Position numbers and translations under genes: made by a program | Part shown: positions 14,108 through 54,652 of the stretch, piece by piece | How positions within the stretch are numbered: the first letter of the stretch is position 1 | How the letters are laid out: each line of letters opens with the position of its first letter | Notes under the pieces: generated by a model | The model's database searches: none | What the model saw: only the letters and a program-made list of their open reading frames with translations | What the model was told of the DNA's origin: nothing | DNA from: Amphiscolops sp. MND2022 | Lineage: Eukaryota | Direction of reading: 5' to 3' | Length of the DNA stretch: 64,000 nucleotides | Assembly (NCBI GenBank): GCA_964187785.1 | Contig: OZ076409.1 | Location: forward strand, 63,056,001 to 63,120,000

Positions 14108-14879
14108 TGTAACGACAAGCTGTTATCGGTCGCTTAACACGTTAACAGAGGTGGAGGAACCTGCAGAAATGGGTGAATCGCTCGAGACAGGCGCCCATCG
14201 CCACAGATCCATTTTGCCTCCAGGGGTGAAATACGTCCCGGGGCCGCGGGTGCTTCGACGAATACTGTCCAACCGGTCCTAGTCTTTGATTGCTAGTAGT
14301 AACGGGCATCTTTCTGGCTCTCTAAAGACCACCGCTTAACTAGCATATAAAAACAATGCCAAGAATAAGGTGAATTTCCAGTTCCAGAATGACATGTGAA
14401 TAAGATCTAAAATTGGGGAATAAGATCTAAACTAGCGCTAGCGCTACTGAATACAACTAAAATCACTGAAAATACATGAAAACAGGCACGAATATGGCAA
14501 ACGACACAGCTACAAGCTGGGGCGCAGGGGCTCCAAGCACCAAACAAGGATCTTTAGGCGAAAAGACTCATTTTTACGGTTTCCGCTACATAGGGTAGCA
14601 TAATGCTGAAAATCGATAAAACCGGTGTTAGCAATTCAAAAAGAGTCTCTTTTCGGATGTTCTTGCCGTCTCTGGTTTCTGTCGTGGCGGCGCGCCCGTG
14701 TTTTTGCTCGTTCTTGCTCTTTGTTGTCGAAGTACCTGCCAATTTCGTGGAAACAGCGAAAAGAGCAATCACATGCTCAGTGCCACGTCACACATCGGAT
14801 TAGAATTTTTGACAAAATTTCTGAACATGTCAAAGTTGCAAAATCGGTTGATATTGCTGTACCAGAGCTTGCCGTTACA
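14108..14879 (-). repeat. Element A 3' LTR
   Basis: Direct repeat of 20890-21661 with about 6 substitutions seen by eye; 14-bp terminal inverted repeat TGTAACGRCAAGCT/AGCTTGCCGTTACA. Confidence 0.95.
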
Positions 14880-14917
14880 TCACTCCCCGGGCTTTATGCA
14901 TGACGTCCCTGTCATGC
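14880..14917 (-). promoter_or_regulatory. Element A PPT region
   Basis: Minus strand GCATGACAGGGACGTCATGCATAAAGCCCGGGGAGTGA abuts the LTR and matches TGACGGGGACGTCA...CCCGGGGAGTGTA in element B. Confidence 0.8.
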
Positions 14918-15795
14918 GGAGAGGCTGGCATTGAATACATCGCCACATCATGAGTGCAATCTACGGGGGTCTCAAACTGGTGATGTTGCAACGGTCCAGT
15001 GGCACTGTCATCTTTTGCTGATTGGGCAACCATGAGGTCTTGCTTCTTGCCATCCAGAGAACCTGCATCGTCCAGAACCTGTTGAAACAGAGCTAGCTCG
15101 AGAGCTAGAAAAACAGTACTCAAAAATGCACCTTGAAATTGATCAAATCCAAGATTCCATACATCAATCAAAAAAGCACCACTTTTTTAGCACGAGTTTT
15201 CTGCAAAAGTCTGAATAGGATCCTGCGAGCACTTTGGTTTTTGGACGTCTAAAATTTCTTTTACGGAGCGCTCACGCTCCAAAGCGCACGTGGTTCTCAG
15301 CAAAACATCTTTTCCACGGCAACAAAATTTCAGTTTGCAGCACAGTTAAAAGTTCTTTTCGTTAGAACTTCGTTTCAGCAGTAAAACCACTGTTTAAAAG
15401 GAAGACAAGCTGTTTCTTTGATACTTTTTTTACAGTTCGGCTTGGTTTGGGCAACACGCACTGATGTGCAGCTCCATACCTGTATAGAGTTCAGTAGCAT
15501 CTGTCAAGGAGCGCATCAGAAGCAAACTACGAACTGCTCGTAAGGGTAAGCACTGGAGTAAAGCAGTCAAAGGTAGATCAAATCTTGCCATTTGCAGATC
15601 AGGAGCGCGCGCTCTCCTTGTTTTTCCGGATATCACATTGGAATCTGGAGGAAACTTCTGGAAATCATGGAAAAAAATCAAAAATAGCACCTTTCGGGCG
15701 TAGCAATACATGTAGAGTTTTTGGGTTATTTATTGCACTGGGGCTCCCCGGGCTTTAATCGTTGAGCACCTTCATTAATTTAAAGATAGCAATGA

Positions 15796-16884
15796 CTAAC
15801 AAAAATTGCGAGAGAGCGGAATGGGCGTTGAAGACACCCCTTCCCCCCGCGAAAAGAAGTGGAGTGTGGTTTGGACTGGGTAGACATCACCATCCAAAAG
15901 CAGCAGGACACGCAACAAGCATGAAGCATCAGGAAATCCGATAAAGAAAATTCTGGAGAGTGGGTCTACCTCAAGACTGGAATAGTTGTTCGGAGGACGG
16001 CCACGCCTATGTCCCTTCGATCGAAGCGACCATGGTAGAGCTTGGCGTGGTGGACGGCCACGGCGACGTCCATCATAAAGGGACAACAGAACTTTTTGCC
16101 ATGAGGGCTCAAAGTCTGTGCGCGATGGTCGACCACGTCTATGACCAGTTGTTCGAGTTTTAGCTAAACCACCAGGCAACCAATTGATAAAGACTGGCGG
16201 GTCCACCTGAATAAAATCCCGTAGCCCACCTTTAGCAGAATGTGGCTCAAAGGAGTCTTTCAGCAATTTCGAAAGCAACTTCGTAGTTCATATTAGGGAC
16301 TTTGTTCCAGGGAAGTGAGAGTTGCTTAAAGAATCCTGCGATCAGGAAATGGAGGATGAGATAGATATTCGTTCTTTCTTCGTATCATTTGAGTAGAGGT
16401 TGCGCTCGCGCAACTCATTATCACCGGCGTGATATTCAGGCAAAGTGTCAGCAATACCCATGGTTGTAGTGTCCAAAGATATTGGGTCCACCCCCATGTC
16501 TTTTGTTGGCGGTGTCAATGGTTCTGATTTGACGTCGTTTGAAACATTGATATCGGCATTTCTGAGGTGTGCCTGCACTTCTGCATTTATCTACTGCATT
16601 TGTGCTAGCGCTCGCGCTAGCAGTTTCTCCCTCCGAAACTTCAGATCCTCTAACTTCGTCGATCGGTCATGTTCATCTACCATATGGGAACCATTTTCCA
16701 CCTTCATGACTGGTTCATCGACTGGCTGGGCTACACTGGTGCCCTTTCCCCCCTTGAAAAAGGAACGGAAAACCTTCCAACGTTTCATTTCAGCTTTAGA
16801 TGTAGTCCAGAATGCGTCGCAGGCACTCAACTCTGCTGACTTGAACTGTTCAGGATCAAATTTCGAAGTCCTAGAGGAGTCCAT
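15796..16884 (-). pseudogene. Interrupted ~362-codon ORF encoding a triple AT-hook protein inside element A
   Basis: Track ORFs 16884-16591, 16578-16342 and 16278-15796 share one frame, broken by TAG (16591), TGA (16342) and TGA (16288); C-terminal part has HRRGRPSR, RRRGRPPR, HRRGRPPN. Confidence 0.65.
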
Positions 16885-19800
16885 AATTTATGACCCCTGC
16901 CGGCAATTTTTTTGAACCGTGGGATTCGCCTCGTTTGCACCCAAGAAGGTCTACTGGGTCCCTTCCGTTGGAAAATGAACGCTTTTTGGGTCCGCCTACT
17001 GTGCAGCGGAAGTATTGAGGATTTACAATATTAGTTTTTTTGCTAGATTTTCGGGATTTTCGTTCAAAACGTGTGTCTGAACAAAGTCAAATTCAGTTTT
17101 ATCAATCGTACTGGGTAAAAAATGACACATCACGTTTCGTCAGCCACACAAGTCAAAAAAATAACCTCCCGTAGCTGATGATTGCCTCCAGCTTTAAGCT
17201 AGAGCCTTTTTCAACGATTTTTGGATTTTTCAACTTTTTTCGAAAATCACTCAAATGGCTTGTACAAGTGCTGGAAACGTGGTATCGGGCTCAAAATTGG
17301 TCACGCGATCACACGTATAGCCAGCTACACTACAGTAACAACCAATGAGAATTCAGACCATTGGGCAATATTTAAATCTGATACTGACGTTCCGTATCAC
17401 CGTGTCTCGATTGACACGATTTTTCACATGCAATCAAAGACTCTCGTCCACAGTGCTGAGTTCTCGAGCTCACTTTATCAGCCGGGTGCACCAAATGACA
17501 CTAATAAGAATAGTCCAGGGCATTGTAATCCCAACTTCCCAATAAGGTGCGCCGACAATGATCCATTTCGTTACAATACACAGGATATCACAACTTCAAG
17601 TAAAAAATGCTATGATCCAGCAAAGCAGCCCACTCGATACTGATCAAATATTACACGCACAGCAATGAACGAACTACTGGGAGTTCAAACTAGGGGTTTC
17701 CACAGGTTTCCAACACGTAGAAATGACTTTTTTCTCTTTCCCAGTTTTCGTCTCGGTTAAACCTCTAACTGACACAATGAATATGCACGTCCGAGAAGCG
17801 TCGAAATAAGTTCTAAGGGTCGCAGTGTGCTGAAAGGTAAACAGCACTTCCGGATTGATGCACTGACTTAAAAAATGAGTCCAGAATCGGGGTATTAGGA
17901 TCCAGTCACAGGTCACAGGTTTTCCAGATATTTTTTGGGTTTTTCAAATTCATTTGAGAAAAACTCAAGTGGCTAGCGCTAACGCTAGAAATGCAGGATC
18001 GACTTCAAAATTAACCACACAATCCCACGTAAGTTGAGGTACACGGGAATAATAGCTGATTTGTGCTGAGATGACTAGGTGAAGTTTCAACACAGTACAG
18101 ACGTTCGGTATCACCGTGTTCCAAGATGTACTGTTCTTCACGTGTCAACCCAGATTCTGGCGAACTGCAAAGAGCGCTCACGCTCGTTTTTTCGGCAACA
18201 TTACGATAAGCTTGCATTGGTTACGATAGTGGGCAGCAATTTGGCCCCACCCTTTGAATAAGGTGTTCAGACAATCCCACAAGACTTCGTAGAATTCGCC
18301 TTCTTGCGCACCTTCTTGTGCAGTTTGTTTTAGTCAATTTCTCAACAGATACAGTACCAATTGACCCTAAATTTGGCATGCGCTGTCAGTGAGTGCCAAC
18401 CACGTTGTTAGAATAGTGAAACAGACGCTGGTAGGCTTGCAGGGGATCTTCTCGAGGATTTGGACCTCTGCTCGTCTCGGTGAGGACTTAAGAAAATTGA
18501 TGTTTTTCAACGTCCAAGATTTTCAAAACACGTTCTAAGGCTCGTAGGCTGTTCAAATTTGCACAACGCTTTCCCACAAGCACACTGGGCCAGAAAATTA
18601 ACATGGTTTAAGGCAAAAAGTCTCCAGTCACCCACAGGAAGAATTTCAAAGAAATTTTGGATTTTCCAAAAATCGCACCACAACACTCAAGAGGCTCGTG
18701 TGTGTGCTGGAAGCGCCGTATCGAGCCCAAAACTGACCAGCAAATCGTAGGTACACGTAGGTTCACGAAAGTGAACACAGTTTTGAGCTGCGCCCTTTCT
18801 ACACAGTTTCACCTAGGTACAGACGTGCGGTACCACTATGTACCGAAATACACTGTTTTCCACGTTTTTTTTTCAAGATTGCGGTCCTCTGGAAAGAGCT
18901 AGCAAGCTCAAAATCTCTGCAACAACGTACGAACTAGCACAAATTACAATGTTGGGCTGCAATACAGCCCCACCCGTCGGCTAAGGTGCTCGGGTTACTT
19001 GGAAAAATTAAGAAAAAACGGCCTTTTTGCGCTCCTTTTTGGGTGCCACGTTTTTGGTATTTTCTCAATAAGTATCGCACAAATCGGCACCAAACTTAGT
19101 AGTCTATGCCAGTGGGTACCTACAAGGCCACTGATATGGTCGAATTGAAGCGCGAGCGCTTATTTAAGGTTTCGACCCGATATGGACGTTACACACAAAA
19201 AACACTGTTTTTGACTACTTTTTTCACAATTTGACCAAGAGGTTCACCTCAGAAAGTGATACGGCAGGCAAAAGGGGACCAACGTGTTTCCCCACTACCC
19301 GTAGCACTGGGATAAACCCTCAATTGGTGGTGCCCGTTAGGTGAAAGGCACTGACAGTCCTGCAGTTTCGGATTTTTTTGGTCCTCTTACGCTTCTCTGA
19401 AGTCGAAACGTCAGAGAGCTTTTCTCGACTTTGGTGACCGATACGCTCACTAAATTGTCGGCACTAACGTTAATTTTGGTGGTGGTTACGAAAATGCAAC
19501 CACATTTTGGCTAGGGTTCAGGAATCGATGACCCGACCCTAGCTCAGAGACAGTCCGGTTTTGTGGAAAATTGATCAAATTCAGTGCGTTTTTCCACTTT
19601 TCTCAGCACTGAATGGGAGTTTTTACACGCAGTTTTCACCACCACGCGTTATATTTACTACAAAAACAGAAAATGAGAGCGCGCAGGCTCCCAGGTCACG
19701 AAAACACTGAGTGCCCCAGAGGTTTTAATGATGCACTCTGGCACTCCTGAAACTGGCCAAAAATCAAGGTTTTTCGACCTCTTCTCACCAAGAAAACGTT

Positions 19801-20856
19801 ACAAGCTCTTTTAAATCCTATTTTCGGTACTGTGGAGTGTGCCCCAAACTAACAGCAGCACGGAAGAGACAATTACATCACAATCCAGCACTCTCCCAGT
19901 GGCATTTCATAGTGGTTTTTTGCCAATTTCGCCAAAAACCGGGTTTTTTCATGCAAAATGTGTCCCAAAAAGGTCTCCAACGGCCTTTCTGGTTGTCGTT
20001 ACATTATGTAGCAAAACCCTCAAGGCTTTGGGTTGCTTTTATTCATTTTTGCAACTGCTGTGGCTAATACTTCGGGCGCTCGCGCTCGTACCAAGAAAAG
20101 TACTCAAAAATGCCAAAAATCACGTTTTTGCGACTTTTGCACTAAAAATCGCCCTTTTTTTCACTGAACACAGATGCAAAAGCACACACTGAGTTGCAAC
20201 AAGGAGAAACAAGCCTTACCAAACAATTCCCCGTCGAAAAAAGTGTATTTTTAAATTTTTCGTCAACCATGAGCCATTTGAGCGACACTTCTGGTCACAG
20301 GGGGTACATCTTCACCACGTTTTTTCTCCACATCTAGACCACATAGAGACACGCGGTTTAGACCATCAGCATCGTCTACTCTTGCACTTGCTGTCCACCA
20401 AAAACCATACCTCCAGGACGTATCCACGAGAAATGGGAGTAGGAAGTAGGCAACACACGATTTGACCCCTCTGCCGCCTCGCTGGCTCGTGGCTGACCAT
20501 CCAGCAGTCACCTTCTTGCATGGCATAAAATGGCTGAAAATAGCTCAAAAAACCTGTTAAACACCCGTAGCCACATGCTACGGTCCTCTACACCTGCAAA
20601 AAAAGATACCCGCTGATGGGAACCTCGCAATTTTAGACGATATCTGTCAACAAGTACCTGTTATCAAAACATACCAAAGGTACTCGGAAAAATACCCTGA
20701 AAGACTGGTAAAACACCAAAATACAACGTCATAACATCTAAAAAATTTGGAAAAACTCTGGGTAAACGTCTCCTTCCAGAGTTCAATCGTTCTTGGCGTC
20801 CAATACCAGGGGGTCGGAAATTTCAAAACCATATAATAGGGCAGTAATCGGAAGCG

Positions 20857-20874
20857 ATCCCTCTGTGGTCGCCA
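20857..20874 (-). promoter_or_regulatory. Element A primer-binding site (tRNA-Arg-like)
   Basis: Minus strand TGGCGACCACAGAGGGAT, identical to the element B PBS, 15 nt from the LTR end. Confidence 0.85.
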
Positions 20875-20889
20875 AAAAATGAGGTCTCA

Positions 20890-21661
20890 TGTAACGGCAA
20901 GCTGTTATCGGTCGCTTAACACGTTAACAGAGGTAGAGGAACCTGCAGAAATGGGTGAATCGCTCGGGACAGGCGCCCATCGCCACAGATCCATTTTGCC
21001 TCCAGGGGTGAAATACGTCCCGGGGCCGCGGGTGCTTCGACGAATACTGTCCAACCGGTCCTAGTCTTTGATTGCTAGTAGTAACGGGCATCTTTCTGGC
21101 TCTCTAAAGACCACCGCTTAACTAGCATATAAAAACAATGCCAAGAATAAGGTGAATTTCCAGTTCCAGAATGACATGTGAATAAGATCTAAAATTGGGG
21201 AATAAGATCTAAACTAGCGCTAGCGCTTCTGAATACAACTAAAATCACTGAAAATACATGAAAACAGGCACGAATATGGCAAACGACACAGCTACAAGCT
21301 GGGGCGCAGGGGCTCCAAGCACCAAACAAGGATCTTTAGGCGAAAAGACTCATTTTTACGGTTTCCGCTACATAGGGTAGCATAATGCTGAAAATCGATA
21401 AAACCGGTGTTAGCAATTCAAAAAGAGTCTCTTTTCGGATGTTCTTGCCGTCTCTGGCTTCTGTCGTGGCGGCGCGCCCGTGTTTTTGCTCGTTCTTGCT
21501 CTTTGTTGTCGAAGTACCTGCCAATTTCGTGGAAACAGCGAAAAGAGCAATCACATGCTCAGTGCCACGTCACACATCGGATTAGAATTTTTGACAAAAT
21601 TTCTGAACATGTCAAAGTTGCAAAATTGGTTGATATTGCTGTACCAGAGCTTGCCGTTACA
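20890..21661 (-). repeat. Element A 5' LTR
   Basis: 772-bp direct repeat of 14108-14879, followed on the minus strand by the PBS. Confidence 0.95.
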
Positions 21662-36160: not shown

Positions 36161-36176
36161 TAGAGACATCATTTTT

Positions 36177-36194
36177 TGGCGACCACAGAGGGAT
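36177..36194 (+). promoter_or_regulatory. Element B primer-binding site (tRNA-Arg-like)
   Basis: TGGCGACCACAGAGGGAT, complementary to a ...GTGGTCGCCA tRNA 3' end of the kind found in animal tRNA-Arg(UCG); 16 nt from the LTR. Confidence 0.85.
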
Positions 36195-37433: not shown

Positions 37434-37592
37434 CCCATTCAGTGCTGAGAAAAGTGAAAAAACGCACTGAATTTGATCAATTTTCCACAAAACCGGACTG
37501 TCTCTGAGCTAGGGTCGGGTCATCGATTCCTGAACCCTAGCCAAAAAGTGGTTGCATTTTCGTAACCACCACCAAAATTAACGTTAGTGCCG
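37434..37592 (+). promoter_or_regulatory. Putative packaging/dimerisation signal shared with element A
   Basis: 157/159 identical to the reverse complement of 19459-19617; hairpin 37508-37541 with ATCGAT in the loop. Confidence 0.6.
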
Positions 37593-43200: not shown

Positions 43201-46200
43201 TTGGGTTATTTGAGTGGCGGCGTATGCCTTTTGGTATGTGTAACGCATCAGCAACATTTCAACGGGCAATAGCGCGAGCGCTACAAAGAATAGTGAACCG
43301 TGAAGGAAGTATGGTTATGGCCTACATCGATGACATTGTGATTGCTACCGAGACCATCGAGGATCACATGGATAGACTACGCGAAGTATTCCAATGCCTG
43401 CGTGAGGCCGGGTTCAAAATGAGAGTCTCCAAGTGTGACTTCATGAAATCGGAGATCAAATATTTGGGCCGGGTCGTATCCGCAGATGGTATCAAGCCAG
43501 ATCCAAAAGCTGTCACCAAGCTGAAAGAATGGGATATCCCGCGAACCAAAACTGAATTGCAAAGTTTCTTGGGTTTTGCCAACTACTATCGGGATTTTAT
43601 CCCATGGCATGCAAAACTAGTTGCCCCTTTACACGCGATAACGGGAGGAGCCTCTTCATTTTTATGGGGGGAGGAGCAGCAGCGAGCCTTCAACAGCATC
43701 AAAGTGGCACTAATGGAAGCCACCGCTCTGGCGCAACCTGACACTGAAGGCGAATTTGTTCTCGACACGGATGCTAGTGGTGTAGCTATATCGGGTATTC
43801 TGCACCAATGGCAAGGACCACCTGAGAGTCGCAAACTGCGACCGATTGTATTCGGAAGCAAAAAATTAACTGCTACGCAAGCAAAGTATGGAGCCCCAAA
43901 ATTGGAAATGTATGCTGCATACTATTTCATCTTGAAAAACCACAGTTACCTCTGTCCACGAAAATTCACACTGAGGGTAGATAATCAGGCCCTATCCTGG
44001 CTAAAAACATATTCGATGGATCAGGCGATTATCGGTCGATGGATTATGGCTCTTGAAAAATATCACTTCAGCATTGAGCATCGACCCAGAACGCAACATC
44101 GAAATGCTGATGGTCTTAGCAAACGAACAAATGATTACAAAAAACACGAAAAGCAACTAAAAGGCTTACCCGCAATTGCAGACAAATGGGATTTCCTGTC
44201 ACAGGAGGAATATAACAAACTCCCGCTAGCCCCATGGTTCGACGTCCACGGACGCGTGATACCAAATCATCCAGAATTGCCTGCACACTTGCAGAGGTTG
44301 GGTAGCCAATGTTCACCCGAGACCACAGTTGCCGCTCTCTCGCGAAAGAGCGGAGGAAGCAAACGAAATGCAACCATACGCGAGGAAGCCATGAGAGCGC
44401 CTCTACCTACATTGCCAAAACCAGAATTGACACTGCCCGCCGAACTTTATCCAGAATATCCTGAGGATTGGTTAGAACTGACCGAGGAATATCAACGAGA
44501 CTATCTACTCCCCACGCATGCTGCTAACGTACCATCAAGAACCACTTACCCACTAATGGAAAAGCAAGCAACTAGCACTGCACCAGAGCACGTAAAACAA
44601 GCCGCGTTTGTGGTAAACAGCATATCAATGGAACTGCATGAACATGCTAACACAGTCCATGGATTGAAGGATCTACTACTAGCACAAAACCGTGACGTCC
44701 ATATATTGGCCATCAAGAAATTGGTAATGCAAGAATCAATAGATAATGACGTCTTTCCGGAAAATGTGCGCACCTTTGCCAAAAACTACCACAAACAGAA
44801 GAAGAACCTCCTACTGATAAACGCCAACGGGATTTTGTGTGTAAAATACTCCAAAACTCAAAGAGCTTTGCATGAACGCCCCTGTATGATAGTGATGCCA
44901 CAATTGTATCAGCATGAGATACTATTCAAGGCCCACGACGCGATGGGACATCAGGGCATCGCGAAAGTCTTGGCCAGAATTCAAGAGCGCCACACTTGGC
45001 CAGGCATCCGCCGCACCATTGGACAATACGTCAGTCAATGTATCACTTGTCAACAAGTACGCGACAAGCCTGGTGATGTACGCTTTCACTTGAAAAATAT
45101 CCAAAGCGGTTATTTCAACGAGCTAGTCCAATATGACCACATGAAAATTTGTCCCTCTGATGATGGTAACACAGGGATATTGGTTATTATCGATCATTTC
45201 TCTAAGCTCGCAGAAGCTGTGCCATGTAACCACGATGAGTACGATGCAGCGACCACTTCAAAGTTGTTGTTGCAGAAGTGGTTTGCCCGCCATGGAACGC
45301 CAACGAGGATGCAGTCAGACAATGCTCCCAATTTCACCGCGGCAGTATCTGCTGAGTTTATGAAAGCAGCCCAAGTGACCAAAGTAACCTCAACTGCTGG
45401 CCACCCCAGGACTCAAGGGTTGGTAGAACGACAAAACCGAACGCTACTCACCCTACTGCGTGTATTCTGCTCTAGACGAATGCGTGACTGGGATCAGTAC
45501 CTAGATGAAGTTATGGGTGCATACAACTCCACACGTCATGCCACTACTGGATTTTCCCCGTATATGCTGACCAGAGGCATGGAAAAAGCTATACCCCTGA
45601 CTTTTTTGTATCCGGAATTTGCAACTCAGTCATTCGAATCACACGAAGCCTATGTGGAACATGTGCTGGCTCGACAACAAGAGATTCATGACTTAGTCCG
45701 TCGCAACACGCATCAAGCCCAACAACGACAAAAATTGAAGTACGACAGAGCAATTCGTGCTAAGGCCTACGAAGTGGGCGAACCTGTTTGGGTATTCTGC
45801 CGATACATTCCTCAAAAGGGATCTCCCAAATTGATGAGAGCGTGGCGTGGTCCTCACAAGGTAGCACGAGTGCTACAAGAGGGACGTGTTTACATACTTG
45901 ACACTGGGCAGAAAGTGCATTTCGAACGATTGAAACCGCATCATGGTGGTCCAACAGAATGGGCAGCTGTTCCTGCGCATAACGGCGAGGTTGCTATTAT
46001 CATGGACCCTGATCCAGAACAATCCCATGAGGAGGTGAGAGACGATGCTTCACAACCTTCTTACCGTGCAGAGGAACCAATTTCGGAAGCCAGTGATGCC
46101 TCTTTGCCTTCTCGACAAAGACATTGGATGGACACACGGTTACGCACACACATGCGCGCAGGTGGCAGCCGCCTACATTATCAACAATTTGGCTACTCTT

Positions 46201-48311
46201 CGACTGAGTCTGACGATGAACGTTCTGATGTACTCCTATCGAGTGCTCAAACAAATCCTGACGAAAGTGTCATCTTGCCATCACAAGCAGACGAGCCTGC
46301 GCCTATTCCCGAAATGCCAATATCACCACTACCTGCTATGGAGGCTCTATTTTCAGAGAATGAAGCAGTACCAGACGCATTAGATGTCGCCCCGAATCCT
46401 AATATCCACGTACCCACCGAAAGTGCCGCCACTTCTTTGACCGGTACATCCGCCCCATTATTGACAAATCCATCTCTTACGGATATGTTGAGTAACTTTC
46501 CCATTTGGCCCCTAATCGATGACAATGACCTCAACCCAACCCTGGACGACGACGGTGCCGATACACCAACGACCAATAACGAAAAGGGATCAATTCCCCC
46601 TGTAACAAATCCCATCAACAATGATGCAGCTACTACCACGAAACTCCCCAATGCTCCTAGAGGGCGTGGACCCCGGGGACGTCCGCCAGGCAGAGCAAGG
46701 CCGCGAGCCTCGCTACCACGTGGTCACCAACGGAGAGGTGCTATTAGAGGCACTCGCAAAAGAGGCCGTCCCAGAGGTAGACCTCCTCGTACAACGCACG
46801 CCAGACCTAACACTCCTACCCATATTCGTAACACTCCATCAATGGACACTGACTCTTCTGCCCCTAGCGCGGCGGTTACCTCAGATCAGGCAGCACCACC
46901 AGAATCGACCAACGCTCATTATGGACTGCGACGCAATCGTATTCCCAGATATCGTTGCGGAACATGTGGCCTACGAAACTGCGAATGTAACTACATGGTC
47001 CACGCGGGCTTCCCAATCGAATCCCAGGGAGTCCTACTAGCACGTGAACAGGAGAAACCACTTCCGAGCGGAATGGTTGACCGTTTGATTATTCGAGCCG
47101 AGAAAACCTACACTGGGCTACAACGCAGTGACACTCCATATCCCGTGGACTATATCCTATCCAAAATGAAGGATTCTACGATAGCAAGGGCTCCGTGCCC
47201 AAGGTTCAAGGAGTGGACCTATGATCTTGTTGGTTTGGAGTTCACCTTACCCATCACTGTTCCCCCTTTGCCTACAAATATTGCTTTTGGTCCTTTCAAC
47301 TATGAGCGAGAGCCTATCCAAATGATACGCTGTATTCCTGCTGACCTCTTGTACGACAAATACAACGTCACAGCAAAACCAGGAGACGTTTATCAGCCTA
47401 CAAGCAACTGGTGGCTACTAGTTACGGCCAAACAAGCATCCGACTTGGTTCATCCCACTAACTTGAACACCTGTCTGGAGAGTTTGCGGACGATGGCCTC
47501 TCCTGATAAAATCACTTGTTTCCACACGATAGACCTATATCGTGGTAAAATTAAGTTTGAATGGTGGCTGGAACTTATTATAGCAGTTTTATCAAATTTC
47601 TCACGAATCAGATTCCTGGACGAATGGACACACTCATTTCCTAGTCCTGTATCCCTCCAATCGGCCCTGCACGCACTGGATACATGGTCCAGGGCTAACA
47701 TTGATAATCAATCATTGCCGCGATCTGTATGGCAAGATTTGGGCGCAATCAAGGGCCTCCTCCCGAATGCATGTGACGATGCTCTTTCCAAGGACCCCGG
47801 ACGAGAGTTAGTGTACCATGGAGCCGCGAGACCTCAATTGGTTGACTATGTGCAGTATGCCAATACGGACTTCCTGCAGACTCCCCATCATATCGTTTTA
47901 TGTTGTCCTGCAAATCTGGAAACTAGTTCTGCCTCTCTTCGTTACGTCATTCGTGAGCATGGTGCAGATGCAATCTTTCAACTTCGACCGGAGGTTGGCA
48001 ATATTGTAACGCTACCCACGTCTTTGATAGACGGCCATCCTCAGACTATCCACCTTTTAATCACACGAGCTACACCTCGCTGCCCTATGCTCGCTGATAT
48101 TCTTTTTGGATGTCTTGATCATTTGAAAACGTTACTCGAGCGCTTGGAGGCGATAGAAGTACACTTTGCCATCGTTGATCCTGAACGCCCAATACGTAAT
48201 CTTTTTGATTTGTATGCCTGTTTGATGGACGTATTCGCCGACACCCCCCTGACCGTCGTTCTTCACGATCGCGTTTACGTATCTATTGCAAGCGTCGCTA
48301 GCTTTCCGTAA
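40242..48311 (+). CDS. gag-pol: Element B Gag-Pol polyprotein (2689 aa from ATG; frame open from 40098)
   Basis: Capsid-like region; CCHC knuckles at 41034 and 41181; protease LIDTGSG (41820); RT with MPFG and YIDD (43323); RNase H (LDTDAS...ELE-like KLEM...NADGLS); integrase HHCC (44934-45050), DDE core and WRGPHKV; ~780-aa extension. Confidence 0.97.
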   Translation: MSKELAPLIANRDQTRVRPTVYKGTKDGSVDGWLPVMKRFLERVHAKSPKIDRAWAIIDHLEGEARNYIINKSEPERDEPDKVFSLLASRFGTGGNRMHVRQTFMSRVQQEKEDWMQFLDALEGLRTQGFPDEPITTRRYEILQRFIDGVNDPTLRQELAVVYAAEAYLTEPPTVESLRFTTRQLQRHRPNTSKPYDPRYAMRSRPHPFVPGKLVHPAPGLPQNVLPPNQGQREAKPQMAPPAPASVKQAPAQQQPARVVPQGACFNCGLPGHFARECPSRDLARKPAARAAPEERVNLCENNVASACSGPVFCVNCGMTEHSASQCQNVPVHEDLAYSLWAEQPPASQTMSDSEMVLMLRPAETAHVATPLTVTCGKIQIQTNPEPTTFDPSGRTIMSVRLLLAIERETRPELTIDALIDEITANENCRQLTLPQPEEWQVKGVTSTYHAYSPIPVKVCIDGVDMRFGATIITDAFPPGICLGPQELRCYNIDAQEPTGEARIDERASLVVSFVVPDAAPVPLRGLIDTGSGVSILTFSAYNRVAVRTGTLLRPYGIDLYAANGKTIKTFGLAEKVKFQLGGYELETNFVVVDDAMGVEDFLLGRNFLRAYQVLVDLTAMKVIVRAPSEPVWYHAHTQVSNESLNSSVAIAQDVVLQPFERAILRAKLLVDNLEPFIFRTVLINFQTPNRMLKNAIFLEDTVATVGETGFLYVSLGNLTSNVQRIKKGTLLGTAVPVTMVHKAIPQIVPGQSSETQQSNANYVCKVYEQMNLDSSSEYSSSSEFEFLSSTEPSELGLSEREVKKRTDPALMAPIPGPEAQLDEVRGLWGSTASDTLSKLLNEFDDLFMKFKADIGKCKIAKHPVEVEPGAVPHREGARRMSPDKAERANQEVRDLLALGMIQPSLSPWASGIVMVKKKSGELRFCCDFRPLNEVTIKDAYPLPRIDESLSRLGKAKIYTSIDLAWAFWQIPVRKADRQKTAFACELGLFEWRRMPFGMCNASATFQRAIARALQRIVNREGSMVMAYIDDIVIATETIEDHMDRLREVFQCLREAGFKMRVSKCDFMKSEIKYLGRVVSADGIKPDPKAVTKLKEWDIPRTKTELQSFLGFANYYRDFIPWHAKLVAPLHAITGGASSFLWGEEQQRAFNSIKVALMEATALAQPDTEGEFVLDTDASGVAISGILHQWQGPPESRKLRPIVFGSKKLTATQAKYGAPKLEMYAAYYFILKNHSYLCPRKFTLRVDNQALSWLKTYSMDQAIIGRWIMALEKYHFSIEHRPRTQHRNADGLSKRTNDYKKHEKQLKGLPAIADKWDFLSQEEYNKLPLAPWFDVHGRVIPNHPELPAHLQRLGSQCSPETTVAALSRKSGGSKRNATIREEAMRAPLPTLPKPELTLPAELYPEYPEDWLELTEEYQRDYLLPTHAANVPSRTTYPLMEKQATSTAPEHVKQAAFVVNSISMELHEHANTVHGLKDLLLAQNRDVHILAIKKLVMQESIDNDVFPENVRTFAKNYHKQKKNLLLINANGILCVKYSKTQRALHERPCMIVMPQLYQHEILFKAHDAMGHQGIAKVLARIQERHTWPGIRRTIGQYVSQCITCQQVRDKPGDVRFHLKNIQSGYFNELVQYDHMKICPSDDGNTGILVIIDHFSKLAEAVPCNHDEYDAATTSKLLLQKWFARHGTPTRMQSDNAPNFTAAVSAEFMKAAQVTKVTSTAGHPRTQGLVERQNRTLLTLLRVFCSRRMRDWDQYLDEVMGAYNSTRHATTGFSPYMLTRGMEKAIPLTFLYPEFATQSFESHEAYVEHVLARQQEIHDLVRRNTHQAQQRQKLKYDRAIRAKAYEVGEPVWVFCRYIPQKGSPKLMRAWRGPHKVARVLQEGRVYILDTGQKVHFERLKPHHGGPTEWAAVPAHNGEVAIIMDPDPEQSHEEVRDDASQPSYRAEEPISEASDASLPSRQRHWMDTRLRTHMRAGGSRLHYQQFGYSSTESDDERSDVLLSSAQTNPDESVILPSQADEPAPIPEMPISPLPAMEALFSENEAVPDALDVAPNPNIHVPTESAATSLTGTSAPLLTNPSLTDMLSNFPIWPLIDDNDLNPTLDDDGADTPTTNNEKGSIPPVTNPINNDAATTTKLPNAPRGRGPRGRPPGRARPRASLPRGHQRRGAIRGTRKRGRPRGRPPRTTHARPNTPTHIRNTPSMDTDSSAPSAAVTSDQAAPPESTNAHYGLRRNRIPRYRCGTCGLRNCECNYMVHAGFPIESQGVLLAREQEKPLPSGMVDRLIIRAEKTYTGLQRSDTPYPVDYILSKMKDSTIARAPCPRFKEWTYDLVGLEFTLPITVPPLPTNIAFGPFNYEREPIQMIRCIPADLLYDKYNVTAKPGDVYQPTSNWWLLVTAKQASDLVHPTNLNTCLESLRTMASPDKITCFHTIDLYRGKIKFEWWLELIIAVLSNFSRIRFLDEWTHSFPSPVSLQSALHALDTWSRANIDNQSLPRSVWQDLGAIKGLLPNACDDALSKDPGRELVYHGAARPQLVDYVQYANTDFLQTPHHIVLCCPANLETSSASLRYVIREHGADAIFQLRPEVGNIVTLPTSLIDGHPQTIHLLITRATPRCPMLADILFGCLDHLKTLLERLEAIEVHFAIVDPERPIRNLFDLYACLMDVFADTPLTVVLHDRVYVSIASVASFP

Positions 48312-48539
48312 AACTTTCGTTTGTCCGCTTTCTTTTTTTTGTTTTTCGTTTTTTTTGTCCGCTCGATTAAGTTTAGTGAATCGATACGAAGTTTATTTGA
48401 GACTATTACGTTATCTTTTTCTTTAATGTTAATGTGTAACATTCTATTACTTTCCCTGGTATTACCCTTAAATGACCTATGGTGTTACCCTACTATCAAG
48501 TGTGCTACAATCGACCTACGCTCTTTCAGAACTGTCGTC

Positions 48540-51500
48540 ATGAACCAAGATAATGATAGAAGCAACAACGTCCCGCCGAGGTCTACAGACAACTCTCCTG
48601 CCTTGGGGCAACGCGTCTATGACACTGCGCGTGTCCAACGCACCCCACAAATTGCCTTTATTCGAGACAGACTCGACCAAGGTCTGTCGCCAGCTGCAGT
48701 GGCCGGGGTAGCAGCAATAATTGCCCAGATGGAATCACAATTGCAAGCCCCAATGCTAACGATATCAATTACCTCAGGGTTTCCTGGATTTCAACGATCC
48801 ATGACGTACCAAGATGGAGTGTGGCACGGCCATGATCTTACGCATCACTTCACAGATGATCGTGCGGCGATCTCGTATAGTCTTGCGAATGGCGGAGTCC
48901 ACCAGACTAGACCTTTACAGATCCCTTCTTGCCCGCCTCCACCTCCACCGCCACCTCCTGTACCAACACCACAAGCAGTAGTGCGCGCGCGCACTCCTGC
49001 TCCTATGGTGCCTAGCCTGCCCAATCAATCTATGGCGGAGCAAGCAGTCATTTCAGCGCTACAAGCAGTGGCTGCCAATCCCAATTACGATGACTTCATG
49101 CGATCCATGGAGCAGTGTTGGCCAGAGCTACGTCGAATTGCTCTGCCCACTGTCACTATTCGTAACGACAATGCGACTTCAACTGAAACACGTCAAGGTG
49201 TCATCACTATTCCCCACATCAATCCTCAGTCTGAACAGCCAGGACACTCCCGCACCGTGACTGTGGAACGCAGTCGTTCGCCTTCCCGCTCTTCTCAAAA
49301 GGGGGGAGGAGAGAGCCGCCCTGCCTCCAGAAAGCGCAACGACCCCTCCCCAACAAAGAAGACTCAACAACCATTGACTGCCCGTGACAGCCCCTCGAGC
49401 AAGCCACCACCCGACAAAAAGATTTCCAACGAGAAGGCCACAACCTCCAAAGCGCCAGACCAAACGAAGTCAAAAGTGTCGGAAGCATGCGTGCTTCCCT
49501 CACCCCAATCACAACCGGACGTGACAGGCGAGCAACAAGGACTGCCGCAACCACCATCCACGCAGTCTACAACACGCGAGTCGCTGGCTCAACGAGCGAC
49601 TCCTAAGCCCTCCACGTCAGGACAGCCACAATCGGAGCAAACTGTGGGTTATCAAGGCACCCCTGTATCCCAGCGAACTGTCAAGGACATAATGGGTGAT
49701 TACCCAGGGTTGAAAGTGACCAACAGTGGTCCAACTGGAACCCCACTCCGGAAACAGGCGATTCAACATCCAACTAAGAGGACCTTTACGAAACAGCCGA
49801 CGTACCTGAGCCCCATGCAGAACACAAAGGGCACATTGGTCACCAAGGATTCCCGACGTATCTGGGAATCGGCAGTTATAGTATCGCCCGAATGGCTATT
49901 TGAGAAAAACATGTGTCCTCCAAGTGACGAAGAGCACGCGAAACTGAAGAAGGCAAATGTACCCGTATTCATGAATCGTCCAATCCGCCCAGACCACACT
50001 CCTACCAATGAGCCGGCATGGCTAGGGAAGGCAATGAATATGCTGCCAAACGTGGATGACAATTACCTAGATGCCCTCAACGTTGACCTTCGTGGGCAAT
50101 TCGCCGATCGATATTTTCTCAACGCTGGAGAGACCTTTGAGATCAACCCACGGTACGCCCGTGATCTCGAAGCCCAGCTACCAATGCCAAAAGAAAGGTT
50201 GCAGCGTGCGCGCTTCGCCTTACTTATTGACTCAACATTCCTCAAGAATGTCCCCATCGACAACGTGTTGTCAGACGTGATGGTTTTTACTCTACCGCTG
50301 TCACGTATTCCCGAGATGGCCGAAGTGTTGGTCACCATGTTTGACCCTGAGATGACAGGAACCTTCAAAGAGCCACCTCCACGTAGAGTGATCATCAGCA
50401 ACGTTTTCGATCACATGGCCTGTGAAGGACTAATGGCCCAGATCGCGAACGTTGAGATTATGAATCCAAGTCCGGCTCAGCGAACAACGGTACGCAATGC
50501 AGCATTGAACATGGCCCGAGCCATGGAGAAAGCCCAAAACATCTTGAAAGACAAACTCAAGGTGCCAGCCCTGTTCGTGACACCCCCAGGTTTTTGCCAA
50601 TGGCCCCCCGCCTTGCAGAGATTCATATACATGGTGACAGAAGTTTGCAAGTGCAGAGAAATAGACTTTGCGATCTGCGCGCCCAATATGCGGATTAGCT
50701 CCAATGACTTTCGCCCCTCCTGGCTGTCCTACATGGGGTACATTGCCTCAGTGTCTAAAGTGCTACAGTCAGTAGAGAAAACAGGGAACGCGCAGCTGAC
50801 AATCGACGATGCCATTTACTTTGATCACGGCACTCGCATGGGCTTGTTGGTGTTCAACAAGGACGGAGAAAGGCGAGTCCCAGAGCCCAGTACGGCCGAA
50901 TGCGAGGCAATCCGCCTGAATAACTGGATAGAGCGCGCGCGCTCATCCGGTGGAAAGACTTGTATCAAAACCGATCTTGCAGAAGTCACTGCCACAATGA
51001 GCAAAGTCCCCAGCGACCGAGAAGTAGAACGAGCCATCCCGCGAGTTCAATTTGCCAAGGACCTCACAATCGATCAATTATCAGTGGGAATGAAGTACAT
51101 TGCTGCTAAATTGACGAGCGAAACTCAGGCTGAAATCCAAGCCTTCAGCAGCACCTACGACGCCTGGTACCAGCGGCTACAAACTACCACCGTAGCAGAC
51201 ATTGCAAAAGAGCTTGGGATGTCAACCGACCAGTTTGCCATCTGTTTGGGATTGGGTTGGAGTCCCGATGTTATTCGAGTCGAGTTCGATTTAGAGGAGA
51301 GTTGGTTGATCGAAATCAGCGAGATTATCGGTACCGTGCAGGTGAACGAACTCTTTGCACTGATGCTCACTTTCGGGCAGAAACGCTTTGTAGCTGGCCC
51401 AATGATGATATTGACTGACCTGGTTACCGAGTGTAATCTGGAATGGCTATTTTCATATCTGGTGATTGCACGAGGGAATATCTCAGGTCTAACCGCCCTA

Positions 51501-52907
51501 GCCAAGCTGTTGCAACGGAAAGACGCTCAGGATTATCCCGCTCACCTGGAGCGTATGACAACTTCATTGTATCACTGGATGTATTGCAGTCTGGTCTTTG
51601 CCTCGGGACTCTTCGTGGGGGTGGATAAGCACCAACCGTTATATGATGGACGTCAGCTAGTGACCGAGGTAGCTGGATTTTTGACACCCAACCAGCTGGC
51701 AGATTTCACTTTGGCTGAAGTCGAAGATCTTATACCGGTGTTAGCACCCGTGCTAACTCCGATATTTGGCCCAACCGGGATACTCCGATACCCCACCAAG
51801 CCTCTGAGACTGGCCTCGGAGACGTTAACGGTATCCATCCTAACTTATCTGAAGAACGTAAAACCACACAACTATCAACAGATGCTTGAACGTGGGCTGT
51901 TTCTGCTAGTACCACGTATGTATACCACAATAAAGAATGAGACACAGCAAGACGAAAACCTGGCCGGTATTCTCAAAGCCCGAACAAAGAAGGCGTGCCC
52001 TTTACCTCGCGAATACGGCCCGGTGAATTGGTATAATTCTCCCCTAGACCACCTCGGAATCCCACAGCGATTCAATTGGAGTTTCGCACACCTCAGGAAG
52101 TACGTGACCGAGTGTGTGCAAACCATGGGCGGTCACACGAATCAGGAGTACAATTTCCAAATGATTAAGCTTCCAGCCAGGTACTGGCGAGGACCCATCG
52201 GTTATATCCGGGCCAAGCCAATCAGTATGGTCGAGAAGGGCTTTGATGAGCAGTATGCCTATCGCGACCACTACAAACTTGGCGTGTGGATGTCAAGAAC
52301 CCTGGAGGAGCGCCAAGGACGCCTAAGAGGTTTAATCATCCCCCCACTGACAATGCCTTTTTGGAATCCAGAGGCGAGGGTTACTATGGGAAGCGACATG
52401 CCAGCGGAGACTTGCTACCACGTCATGGAATTGCTAAGTGATCCCCTCGGACCCGAATGGGAAGCCTCTAGGCAAATCATAGAGCATGCGAATAGGGACA
52501 ACTGGTCCAGAGCCTGCGGGCTCTGGGGCCGACCTGATCTACGCCCGAAACTCAGTGCGAAACAGAAACGACCCATTGCCACCCGCAATAGACCGCTGGA
52601 TCTACCGCACTTGTTTAATGCTAGTAGACTGGATGTACAGATCCCAATCTCCACATCAACCACAAGTTCTGCCAATGTTAGCGGCTCAGCCAATGCAGCG
52701 CAAGAACATTCGCCAGAAGCATCAACTCCGGTAGCCGCAGAAAATGGCCCTGGTGGCTCAAACACGGCTCCTAGGACCCATGAAACTGCCAGCGCAGAAC
52801 CAAAGCCAGTCCTGCGAGGAGGAAATACGCGAAGAGGATCTCTGTCTGAACTGCAACCAAAGGCAGACGTTTCCCCCAGAGCGCGTCACTCCTCTGCCAC
52901 CCAGTAA
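48540..52907 (+). CDS. Element B ORF3 (~1455 aa) of unknown function with a degenerate SGNH/GDSL-like domain
   Basis: Intact frame from 48321 to 52907 between pol and the PPT; probable start ATG 48540 (MNQDNDR), where composition changes, 10 nt after a CTCTTTCAG acceptor. Confidence 0.85.
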   Translation: MNQDNDRSNNVPPRSTDNSPALGQRVYDTARVQRTPQIAFIRDRLDQGLSPAAVAGVAAIIAQMESQLQAPMLTISITSGFPGFQRSMTYQDGVWHGHDLTHHFTDDRAAISYSLANGGVHQTRPLQIPSCPPPPPPPPPVPTPQAVVRARTPAPMVPSLPNQSMAEQAVISALQAVAANPNYDDFMRSMEQCWPELRRIALPTVTIRNDNATSTETRQGVITIPHINPQSEQPGHSRTVTVERSRSPSRSSQKGGGESRPASRKRNDPSPTKKTQQPLTARDSPSSKPPPDKKISNEKATTSKAPDQTKSKVSEACVLPSPQSQPDVTGEQQGLPQPPSTQSTTRESLAQRATPKPSTSGQPQSEQTVGYQGTPVSQRTVKDIMGDYPGLKVTNSGPTGTPLRKQAIQHPTKRTFTKQPTYLSPMQNTKGTLVTKDSRRIWESAVIVSPEWLFEKNMCPPSDEEHAKLKKANVPVFMNRPIRPDHTPTNEPAWLGKAMNMLPNVDDNYLDALNVDLRGQFADRYFLNAGETFEINPRYARDLEAQLPMPKERLQRARFALLIDSTFLKNVPIDNVLSDVMVFTLPLSRIPEMAEVLVTMFDPEMTGTFKEPPPRRVIISNVFDHMACEGLMAQIANVEIMNPSPAQRTTVRNAALNMARAMEKAQNILKDKLKVPALFVTPPGFCQWPPALQRFIYMVTEVCKCREIDFAICAPNMRISSNDFRPSWLSYMGYIASVSKVLQSVEKTGNAQLTIDDAIYFDHGTRMGLLVFNKDGERRVPEPSTAECEAIRLNNWIERARSSGGKTCIKTDLAEVTATMSKVPSDREVERAIPRVQFAKDLTIDQLSVGMKYIAAKLTSETQAEIQAFSSTYDAWYQRLQTTTVADIAKELGMSTDQFAICLGLGWSPDVIRVEFDLEESWLIEISEIIGTVQVNELFALMLTFGQKRFVAGPMMILTDLVTECNLEWLFSYLVIARGNISGLTALAKLLQRKDAQDYPAHLERMTTSLYHWMYCSLVFASGLFVGVDKHQPLYDGRQLVTEVAGFLTPNQLADFTLAEVEDLIPVLAPVLTPIFGPTGILRYPTKPLRLASETLTVSILTYLKNVKPHNYQQMLERGLFLLVPRMYTTIKNETQQDENLAGILKARTKKACPLPREYGPVNWYNSPLDHLGIPQRFNWSFAHLRKYVTECVQTMGGHTNQEYNFQMIKLPARYWRGPIGYIRAKPISMVEKGFDEQYAYRDHYKLGVWMSRTLEERQGRLRGLIIPPLTMPFWNPEARVTMGSDMPAETCYHVMELLSDPLGPEWEASRQIIEHANRDNWSRACGLWGRPDLRPKLSAKQKRPIATRNRPLDLPHLFNASRLDVQIPISTSTTSSANVSGSANAAQEHSPEASTPVAAENGPGGSNTAPRTHETASAEPKPVLRGGNTRRGSLSELQPKADVSPRARHSSATQ

Positions 52908-53880
52908 AACAGAACTAACTTTGTCGTCATTCAATTTCCAACTTCAATAGTCTTATGCTAGATAAAATTTTGCGAAATCTCATGGTTTCAATCTCTGTTG
53001 TTGCTAAGCTTCGATTATGGAAATGCCAATTGGTCATGGGTAAAAATCTCCGAGTGGAGATGAAGCCCCCGGGCTTCATCTTCCTTGTTATTCCGTTTTG
53101 GGACCGGCAACCCAACCATGAAACTGCGTTCTTGCCTTGCCTTAGTTAGATGCAATATTCAATTTGCAATTTGTGTTTGCAGTTAGTGCTTTTTCATGCT
53201 ACTTCATGCTACATGTGGATGCGCTGTGCGCACTCCGTGCTCTAAATTTTCGGTGCTATTACACCCTTTTAGTTGCTAGTTATCGTTTACACTGTTGCCA
53301 CTGTCGAAAAAGATAAAAAGAAAAGATAAAGGAAAAGGAAACAAGGAGGGAGAGATGAGAAATGAATAGAATAAAAAGATTGATGAACCTCGACCATTGT
53401 TTTTCTTGAGCTGCCTGACAGGATCGAGAGTAAGTCTCGCAAAAGAAATTTTAAATTGACCGTACTAATTAATTGATTTTATGGCAACTGCTTACCAAAA
53501 GAACTTTTATCAAACGCCAAGCAGTGCGAAGCTCCCGAGCTTCGGAGAATATGTTTCGAACAGTCATGTGATGGTCGTTGACCTTAAAACAAGTTTTAAC
53601 GCTAACGGCAAATAAAAACTTTTTTTGAATGGCCGAAAAGAAATTTTAACGCCTGAATTGCTCACGACAGGCTACAAAAAGCAATGACTTTGCCGTATAA
53701 GATTTGTGTACAAAGTTGTATTGATTTGATCAAAATGCAGCAACGCTGGGTCAAAAATACTTCCACGAGGCCAATTTGACGATGTCTCGATGAACCGCCC
53801 AGCGCTATTTGATGTGCACTCTACCTCCTCAGTGGGACACAGATGACTCTGGGTACAGACTCAATGACGCCAACCCACAC

Positions 53881-53917
53881 TTGACGGGGACGTCAAGACT
53901 AGACCCCGGGGAGTGTA
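53881..53917 (+). promoter_or_regulatory. Element B PPT region
   Basis: TTGACGGGGACGTCAA hairpin then CCCCGGGGAGTGTA immediately before the 3' LTR. Confidence 0.8.
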
Positions 53918-54652
53918 TGTAGCGACTACCTATCGAGTGCACGATTTCGAAAATTTCGATGAAAATTTCGTTCAAGGGACTATATCTCCTCTACTAAAGA
54001 GTCATATTCCGCCAGACGGCAGCGTGTCTTTACTCAAGTACCTGTCCACGGAATTGAAGAGGATTTGAGCAAGAGACTCGAAAGAGACCCCAACCGAACG
54101 AGAAGATTGCAGAAAAACACGGCCACTATCAGAAAAAGACTCAAATTTCTGCCAAAACGGACTGAACTTTGTTCTAACCAGTGCTTTCTTCAGCGAAGCG
54201 TTACAAGACGCTGTGATTACCAAAAATGAGTCAATTAGCTTGACCAAGCATCCGTGCTTGTGTCCCCGGCTAATTGCTGCCTCAAAAGTGCTAATTATGT
54301 AGTAATTTTCGTATTTTCTTGTTGTAACAGCTCGTGAGCTACTCATTTCAATCTCCTGTGTAACTTCGATAAAACTTGATTTTTCCTTTCCACCACTTGC
54401 ATTTTTTTAAAGGCTGTCTAAGTGTTGATTTCGAAGAAAAAGCGTAATGCGCACTACTGATAGCAATTACAGACTGGATCAGGCCGGCGAGCACTTCACA
54501 AGAAGCGGAATCCTCCTCTGACGGGACAGTTTTTACCCGATAGAGGCAAAATGAGCTCATGGTCATGGGCGCCTGTCCCGGGCAAATACCCATATCATGT
54601 GTTCCTCTAACTCTTATGGTTACGGCGACAATGGTGAGAGCTTGTCGTTACA
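53918..54652 (+). repeat. Element B 3' LTR
   Basis: 735-bp direct repeat of 35426-36160. Confidence 0.97.

Follow-up and report, generated by a model that had tools for sequence, protein, structure and literature searches.

The window analysed here, a stretch of 64,000 nucleotides (nt) from Amphiscolops sp. MND2022 (assembly GCA_964187785.1, contig OZ076409.1, positions 63,056,001 to 63,120,000), carries two long terminal repeat (LTR) retroelements: element A, which is short and has no replication genes, and the giant element B. An earlier note on this stretch had read A as a long-diverged satellite of B. Our analysis indicates that A is probably a copy of an amplified non-autonomous lineage, internally deleted from a gag-pol-bearing family with the same type of LTR (the A lineage), and that it is served by the proteins of that lineage and not by those of B. 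A true satellite of B likely exists, as a sister subfamily of A rather than A itself, and comparison of the copies suggests that the satellite lineage is likely able to switch helpers through exchange of a cassette that spans part of the LTR and the priming region.

Element A lies on the reverse strand and its two LTRs were found by self-comparison; its features are as follows.
14108..21661, reverse strand: element A, 7,554 nt
20890..21661, reverse strand: 5' LTR, 772 nt, TGTAAC...GTTACA with a 14-bp terminal inverted repeat, of the A-lineage type
20875..20889, reverse strand: spacer between U5 and the primer-binding site (PBS), 15 nt
20857..20874, reverse strand: PBS, 18 nt, the complement of the host tRNA-Arg(TCG) 3' end with CCA
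19461..19618, reverse strand: conserved leader block with three predicted hairpins
15796..16887, reverse strand: the element's own open reading frame (ORF), 363 codons in open copies, with three stops in the window copy
16233..16800, reverse strand: the part of this ORF that derives from the N-terminal extension of the A-lineage gag-pol, internally shortened
15871..16233, reverse strand: AT-hook-like segment, 362 nt, three RGRP(P/S) motifs, the marker of the non-autonomous lineage
14880..15871, reverse strand: 3' untranslated region (UTR), 94-97% identical to the pol-bearing parent family; a short purine run precedes the 3' LTR
14108..14879, reverse strand: 3' LTR, with a 3-bp target duplication AAA/AAA

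Element A fits the description of a large retrotransposon derivative (LARD), as LTRs, PBS and a putative polypurine tract (PPT) are present while capsid, protease (PR), reverse transcriptase (RT) as well as integrase (IN) are missing; Pfam gave no match for its seven small ORFs. Within its leader (window 16900-19800) lie diverged repeats, 65-70% alike over 100-320 nt, and immediately ahead of the conserved block a variable duplication of 180 bp.

Genome searches were scored for their best 40 matches each. The A LTR gave 3,021 first-look candidates, of which the best 40 were 97-100% identical. Two A-LTR matches 14.2 kb apart bound an element of 15,015 nt with LTRs 99.9% alike and a TTG/TTG duplication; this element has a gag-pol, broken in that copy, and shares A 1-4950 (90%) and A 5791-7554 (96%). 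Its pol has 39 further copies among the matches scored, nearly all at 97-98%. The best ten pol-bearing relatives were fetched: all ten have A-type LTRs (96-97.5% to A), none has the extra ORF of B, and four retain an uninterrupted ORF of 2,773-3,054 codons with PR, RT, RNase H and IN motifs. The earlier note had held that an autonomous element with A-type LTRs would count against its reading and had asked whether copies with such LTRs encode pol; they do, and autonomous-type elements with A-type LTRs are thus present in this genome.

The pol-bearing and A-like elements appear to have been active over the same period, given the overlap in LTR-pair identity (98.1-99.9% in nine pol relatives versus 98.7-99.6% in A-like copies). 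In trees of U3 and of R-U5-PBS, from which a motif filter had dropped three 5' LTRs, the LTRs of eight A-like non-autonomous and 14 pol-bearing elements were intermixed, and the non-autonomous label clustered no more than when shuffled. In an independent sample, five of five A-type pol ends continue into the 3' UTR of A.

A-like LTRs (79-80%) and an A-like 3' UTR, without the extra ORF, are already found in older sisters of the A lineage, whose pol is at 84-85%. In an RT tree of the families of this genome these sisters and the parent of A make up one clade (99/100), whose sister group is families C and E (80/92), and B falls outside; a search for RT homologues returned unnamed proteins only. 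The reverse order of events, with the satellite backbone coming first and then giving rise to the A-type gag-pol elements by capture of gag-pol from another family, would account for an AT-hook-like segment ~18% diverged between satellite forms, which exceeds the divergence of A from its pol-bearing relatives, and for an ORF-start motif that the long A-type elements have in two copies, which would be expected at a recombination junction. The older pol-bearing sisters and their place in one RT clade with the parent of A make such a capture improbable, as does the lack of an extra-ORF donor after any of six A-type pol ends. Internal deletion from the A lineage is the likely origin of the non-autonomous form.

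The A lineage itself is under constraint (the ratio of non-synonymous to synonymous substitution rates, dN/dS, lies at 0.07-0.17 for its capsid, PR, RT, IN and macro regions). None of five examined A-lineage gag-pol elements has a CCHC knuckle, whereas nine of nine other representatives have at least one; by these comparisons the A lineage appears to have lost both its CCHC knuckles and the extra ORF, and another mode of packaging is possible. The extra ORF is likewise missing from family H (D-like, ~15 kb, contig C1, 5,251,500-5,277,000), a second and independent loss. At C1, 34,036,000-34,112,000, one A-type satellite is followed by five A-lineage gag-bearing units ~14 kb apart in an apparent tandem array; in the A lineage and in family D there are exact internal duplications, of 3.1 and 2.8 kb respectively and 99.4-99.8% alike, which could stem from recent template jumps or be artefacts of the assembly. 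The last macrodomain strand of pol, sought with a degenerate pattern that misses families C and E, gave 1,106 matches, which puts the pol-bearing copies of the clade at well over a thousand, spread over many families.

The structure of A recurs widely. Its 2.45-kb interior was spanned end to end in 29 of 30 fetched loci at 92-100%, so that the structure has been amplified as such, with fresh target duplications, which argues that it was mobilized in trans. The first two thirds of its ORF derive from the N-terminal extension of the parent polyprotein (four pol-bearing copies match it at 92-96% over 377 nt, and the piece ahead of this stretch matches at 74%), and for this part a captured host gene was rejected. 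The cargo gene proposed earlier was therefore overstated, the ORF being mostly the 5' end of the parent polyprotein gene joined to the 362-nt AT-hook-like segment; likewise the statement that A has no gag-pol remnant holds for capsid, PR, RT and IN but not for the N-terminal extension. That A is no simple deletion product is borne out by this segment, which none of the autonomous elements examined has; its LTRs, leader and 3' UTR are shared with a pol-bearing family. The source of the AT-hook-like segment was not found in families B, C and D or in the A lineage, and no protein relative was found among longer proteins, which is weak evidence; a 32-mer of the segment has 357 exact copies in the genome.

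Measured against one open natural copy, the A ORF is intact in four of 29 other copies. Stops fall at 15 positions, none common to more than two copies, which indicates that decay is mostly copy-specific, and a frameshift site in a G-run recurs in eight. Between A- and B-type satellites (the latter described below) the frame stays open over 153 substitutions where ~6 stops would be expected (P ~0.002, open copies having been chosen). However, dN/dS over the whole ORF is 0.94-1.07, falling to 0.41-0.64 in the motif region, where the interval extends to 1 in two of three comparisons, so that amino-acid constraint on the ORF is not supported (~1.0 versus 0.16 for the N-terminal extension of B). 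The AT-hook-like protein may possibly have a function. One such function would be mutualistic, the basic protein of the satellite supplying the nucleic-acid binding that the knuckle-less A-lineage Gag is missing. Knuckle loss throughout the lineage, three RGRPP motifs invariant between aligned A- and B-type copies, the open frame and the 357 copies of the 32-mer would all fit; we consider it quite improbable, since dN/dS reaches 1 as described, the protein has no capsid domain, Pol has RGRP motifs of its own, and satellite forms with B-type or C/E-type ends keep the protein although their helpers have knuckles.

Element B lies on the forward strand, with the following features.
35426..54652, forward strand: element B, 19,227 nt
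35426..36160, forward strand: 5' LTR, 735 nt
~35908 through 36270, forward strand: B cassette, which recurs at 98.6-99.2% in the B-type satellite subfamily
36161..36194, forward strand: 16-nt spacer and 18-nt tRNA-Arg(TCG) PBS
37433..37590, forward strand: conserved leader block, an A/C/E-type tract within a B-type leader
38440..48311, forward strand: gag-pol gene, frameshifted near 40,135 in the window copy
47049..48308, forward strand: C-terminal 420 amino acids (aa) of Pol, predicted tandem macrodomains, TARG1/DarG-like
48312..52907, forward strand: extra ORF, 1,531 codons from stop to stop, absent from the A lineage
~50196-50786, forward strand: predicted SGNH-hydrolase-like domain in the extra ORF, from structural comparison of a low-confidence model
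53918..54652, forward strand: 3' LTR, identical to the 5' LTR, with a 3-bp target duplication TAT/TAT

Much of what had been observed on comparing A with B was confirmed. The shared U5 end, the spacer with the PBS and the PPT-proximal motif are present as quoted; the leaders are colinear and diverged (~64% over 2.7 kb, 77% over 826 nt); the near-invariant block, given as 159 nt, is 98.7% identical over 158 nt; and the LTR divergences of ~0.8% for A and none for B were measured as six differences (0.78%) between the two 772-nt copies and no difference between the two 735-nt copies. Against shuffled sequences the A-B similarity stands out in the leader (z=66) and R-U5 (z=31) and lies near background in U3 (z=4) and the 3' UTR (z=2). 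The claim that the LTR interiors do not align therefore stands for U3 but not for the 3' third, where A 522-773 is homologous at 66%.

These shared features, together with the youth and abundance of the B family (40 of 40 scored LTR matches at 99-100%) and an A-type tract in young B which shows that B and A-like RNAs have met, are what favour A as a satellite of B without an autonomous family of its own, bound to B by selection on cis sites. We regard this reading as very improbable for A itself: pol-bearing elements of the A type exist, the R-U5-PBS cassette of A is only 66-76% identical to that of B and 98% to that of its parent family, the motifs common to A and B are clade-wide, and the leader of A is nearer to families C and E (88%) than to B (77%). 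The block is a tract that the sisters of B do not have: in young B it is 98% identical to A and 82-84% to those sisters, to which young B is 90-95% identical in the flanks. All 21 informative sites within the block join B to A/C, against 15 of 162 elsewhere, in a window chosen after inspection of the data (the unbroken run is 23 sites). Purifying selection alone was rejected as an explanation for the identity of the block, since the sisters of young B do not have the A-type tract, and by this pattern the block in young B is likely one import by recombination from the pool of A, C, E and satellite sequences.

The block is predicted to fold into three hairpins (z -3.3), and across 15 natural copies 96.8% of cells pair; covariation is thin, as only two of 31 pairs have both partners changed, in each case within the two closely related older-B rows. 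The block exceeds its flanks in conservation even when older B is compared with A (82-84% versus 47-76%). No match to it was found in the more distant families D and H-K, and a 25-mer of it has 858 exact copies genome-wide.

The block served as an exact-match marker for a census of contig C1, in which 57 of 71 sites were fetched, the remainder being already known. Gene-bearing elements comprised 15 of the A lineage with gag, 11 of family C, 11 of family E, two of B and one of a further family; the 17 non-autonomous sites had A-type (seven), B-type (five) or C/E-type (five, one of them truncated) LTR ends. The backbone marked by the AT-hook-like segment thus occurs with three different cassettes of TATA box, R, U5, spacer and PBS.

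The B-type satellite is ~8.8 kb long and ~18% diverged from A, with an A-related U3 (82%), leader and UTR and an ORF of 460-467 codons, open in three of three copies. Its cassette runs from the TATA-like TTTTTAAA through U5, spacer and PBS to ~100 nt beyond, and is 98.6-99.2% identical to B. A 26-mer across the junction has 160 matches; the first 100 of these include 31 LTR pairs, all no more than 9.3 kb apart and none of autonomous size. Among 20 junction loci, nine have a cassette 98.8-99.3% identical to young B (92% to older B), nine have older versions (90-94% to B) and two are not satellite LTRs; the association of satellite and B is therefore old and was likely refreshed. The B-type form accounted for 12 of the first 100 AT-hook matches listed.

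The U3 tree places both kinds of swapped satellite, B-type and C/E-type, beside A and at a distance from B and C/E; the cassette tree, whose bootstrap values are not fully settled, joins the B-type satellites to B (100/100) and the C/E-type to E (95/89). Such discordance with sharp breakpoints is the pattern of LTR swapping. The idea of a satellite of B thus fails for A and is consistent with the sister subfamily, whose B cassette reaches 99.2%. The LTR of family E is itself composite, its first 100 nt being 89% identical to that of A and the remainder C-like, which constitutes another cross-family exchange.

The chief competing explanation, partly compatible with ours, is an open pool in which all families with the tRNA-Arg PBS and the hairpin block package any member, swaps are neutral and no helper is dedicated. 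It draws on the mosaic leaders of A, C, E and the satellites, on the loss of zinc knuckles and extra ORF in the A lineage, and on network-like mobilization as argued in the accessible part of a recent preprint (bioRxiv 10.64898/2026.03.01.708851). Both cross-family satellite forms, however, took the same region (from the TATA box to ~100 nt past the PBS) from different donors, and in the B-type form the cassette follows, at 99%, the B subfamily that is active at present; a helper-specific benefit fits these observations better than chance, and we hold the open pool to be rather unlikely.

Several points weigh against A having been served by its own lineage. Helper use is read from sequence; the A lineage, lacking knuckles (0/5 versus 9/9 in others) and extra ORF, may itself need other families, so that A could ride mixed particles; and the leader of A has C/E-like tracts (87-92% at A 1040-1440) which, with the A-type block in young B, indicate that exchange with B-family RNA occurred. 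The order of events, deletion from the A lineage as opposed to a later capture of gag-pol by a satellite backbone, is argued from older sister elements, gene conversion at the DNA level could be another source of mosaics, and the evidence comes from the best 40 matches of each search and a census of one contig at exact-match sites.

With service by the A lineage as the preferred reading, the RNA of A would be packaged, reverse-transcribed and integrated by A-lineage proteins, and RNAs of related families would occasionally be co-packaged, presumably because they have the primer tRNA and the hairpin block in common. Two template switches by RT could then graft the 5' cassette of a helper onto the satellite backbone; with this graft the satellite would acquire the new helper's integrase end and priming context, and the subfamily could amplify beside that helper. 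The same traffic in reverse would have moved the 159-nt block into B.

Integration and priming have unusual features in common across the clade. Target duplications are 3 bp in 27 of 29 A- or B-type insertions (solo LTRs and paired elements); 4 bp fits one, at a poly-A site, and 5-6 bp fits none. Representatives of families C, D, H and J likewise show 3 bp by eye, and a 4-bp duplication counting the terminal T was rejected as it fits only 13 of 29. The PBS is an 18-nt match to host tRNA-Arg(TCG) plus CCA in all families examined and lies 15-16 nt from the LTR end in ten of ten representatives, one of them with a mutated PBS, the usual distance being 0-3 nt. Reverse transcription copies the spacer first, leaving it outside the CA of U5, so that the distant PBS would give the cDNA an extension at its U5 end that needs trimming; we envisage a linear cDNA with a 15-16-bp U5-end extension, trimmed before integration, and an integrase that would cut its target with a 3-bp stagger. 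The duplication and the distant PBS together imply an integrase or an end-processing step of different geometry.

In the available text of PMC2253517 the target duplication of LTR elements is typically 4-6 bp, and the default minimum of LTRharvest is 4 bp. Elements with 3-bp duplications fall below this default and can thus be missed or mis-bounded in annotation. The literature searched, which did not extend to Repbase, most subscription journals or supplements, held no description of 3-bp duplications in LTR elements, of so distant a PBS, of a giant gypsy element with a macro domain or of chimeric-LTR satellites.

The primer of the whole clade is tRNA-Arg(TCG). Its pattern has 255 matches in the genome, and tRNA genes were confirmed at three of three loci scanned; ARAGORN found no tRNA in the window. 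On contig C9, from ~57,537,000, these genes form a tandem array with a ~173-bp unit that holds 99 of the first 100 of the 255 matches listed; some units have a TCA anticodon, called selenocysteine (SeC) by ARAGORN, which would read UGA.

The coding capacity of B places it among Ty3/gypsy elements, with PR, RT, RNase H and IN in that order between TG...CA LTRs and a tRNA PBS after the 5' LTR. As two other B copies lack the frameshift near 40,135 of the window copy and read through, what had been listed as ORF1 and ORF2 is one gene in the B family, encoding a polyprotein of ~3,300 aa beside the separate ORF of ~1,450 aa. The polyprotein has an N-terminal extension of ~560 aa, a capsid region, two CCHC knuckles, PR, RT, RNase H and IN, followed by AT-hook-like motifs and two predicted macrodomains. 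Only a short GGGGAG run lies 2-4 nt upstream of the 3' LTR, and it is kept in six of six family representatives. Rfam gave nothing near gathering score for the LTR and leader of B.

The C-terminus of Pol is predicted to form two macro folds closest to TARG1/DarG, a likeness that does not imply ADP-ribose activity. The model has a mean predicted local distance difference test (pLDDT) of 64; macro 1-2 of PARP14 was the top match (E=9e-8), and TARG1 matched at E=5e-7 with a root-mean-square deviation (rmsd) of 2.7 over 142 columns and a template modelling (TM) score of 0.74-0.81 depending on target length. The extra ORF holds a candidate SGNH-fold domain: although the model reaches a pLDDT of only 46, most of the top 50 structural rows are SGNH/GDSL-type hydrolases, with Z of 8.4 (rmsd 4.3, 171 aligned) and 8.1 (rmsd 3.0, 131 aligned). 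Foldseek returned nothing at E<=0.001 for this same model, Pfam had no match for the ORF and the ESM Atlas gave leads below 0.9 only; HMMER found 421 relatives, all unnamed proteins. Tandem macrodomains and an SGNH-like protein, both predicted from models, might point to interplay with host ADP-ribosylation and membranes.

Taken together, we tentatively propose that these giant gypsy-type elements make up a clade, so far undescribed, whose integration geometry (a 3-bp target stagger and a trimmed 15-16-bp U5 extension) is its own, and in which one long-lived satellite lineage moves between distinct helper families in a three-tier network by taking on the TATA-R-U5-PBS cassette of each. It is part of this same joint proposal that the satellite keeps its AT-hook protein and passes a structured packaging element to helpers, and that the helper lineage which shed its knuckles and SGNH ORF may be semi-dependent.

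The window also contains a 516-bp near-palindrome at 31870-32385 with arms 88-90% complementary, resembling a miniature inverted-repeat transposable element (MITE) or foldback element; a nested tandem repeat at 2334-3246, with 29-bp subunits within ~180-bp units; and dispersed short repeats outside A and B at 72-83% (27234-27416 and 54926-55110; 9687-11690 and 24945-26208).

That non-autonomous LTR elements switch helpers has usually been deduced from plant families; the present genome on its own shows three cassette states with sharp breakpoints, the donor subfamily and a reciprocal transfer, and these make the 360-nt cassette the likely determinant of helper choice. Du et al. are said to have described in 2010, as 'LTR swapping' in the soybean SNRE/SARE elements, an exchange of LTR segments by which non-autonomous subfamilies came to match autonomous partners. 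The satellites reported here resemble those elements in that the LTR segments of non-autonomous subfamilies reportedly group with different autonomous partners; they would differ in that the donors are distinct families (RT DNA ~75% alike), in that the exchanged unit starts at a TATA-like box, takes in U5, spacer and PBS and extends into the leader, and in the coexistence of three partner types. LARDs, Dasheng/RIRE2 and BARE-2 are large LTR elements without replication genes that reach high copy number in trans; unlike these, A keeps an ORF remnant and a private AT-hook-like segment, and its lineage changes cassette. These elements are named in the available parts of PMC6431247 and PMC4079214.

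In the grass pararetroviruses eRTBVL2/ePVCVL, according to the accessible text of PMC5491270, partners homogenize regulatory non-coding sequence by region-specific recombination and not by mutation and selection; those are endogenous pararetroviruses, whereas the elements here are integrase-bearing LTR retrotransposons. The gypsy-type Vesta elements of bdelloids carry a GDSL/SGNH ORF3 after pol, and the non-autonomous TelKA2n keeps one ORF (PMC5408684, in part). The predicted SGNH-fold ORF after pol and a one-ORF derivative recall this arrangement, although the SGNH-like domain makes up only one part of the ~1,450 aa of the extra ORF of B; the likeness drawn here is one of architecture. Burro and Ogre are very long gypsy elements with accessory domains, the planarian ones being larger than B (available part of PMC6431247); B has 19.2 kb, short LTRs, a leader of at least 2.3 kb and predicted tandem macrodomains. 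None of the named domains of Burro was matched in B by Pfam, and 'macro' has no occurrence in the available text of that review. Modular, chimeric non-autonomous elements are reported from sugar beet in the accessible part of the preprint cited above. In sum, on our comparison LARD/Dasheng-type parasitism and partner matching by recombination would appear to be known already; what differs from known systems is the cross-family nature of the swaps, the defined cassette and the reciprocal transfer to a helper, together with 3-bp duplications, a distant PBS, predicted tandem macrodomains and a knuckle-less helper lineage.

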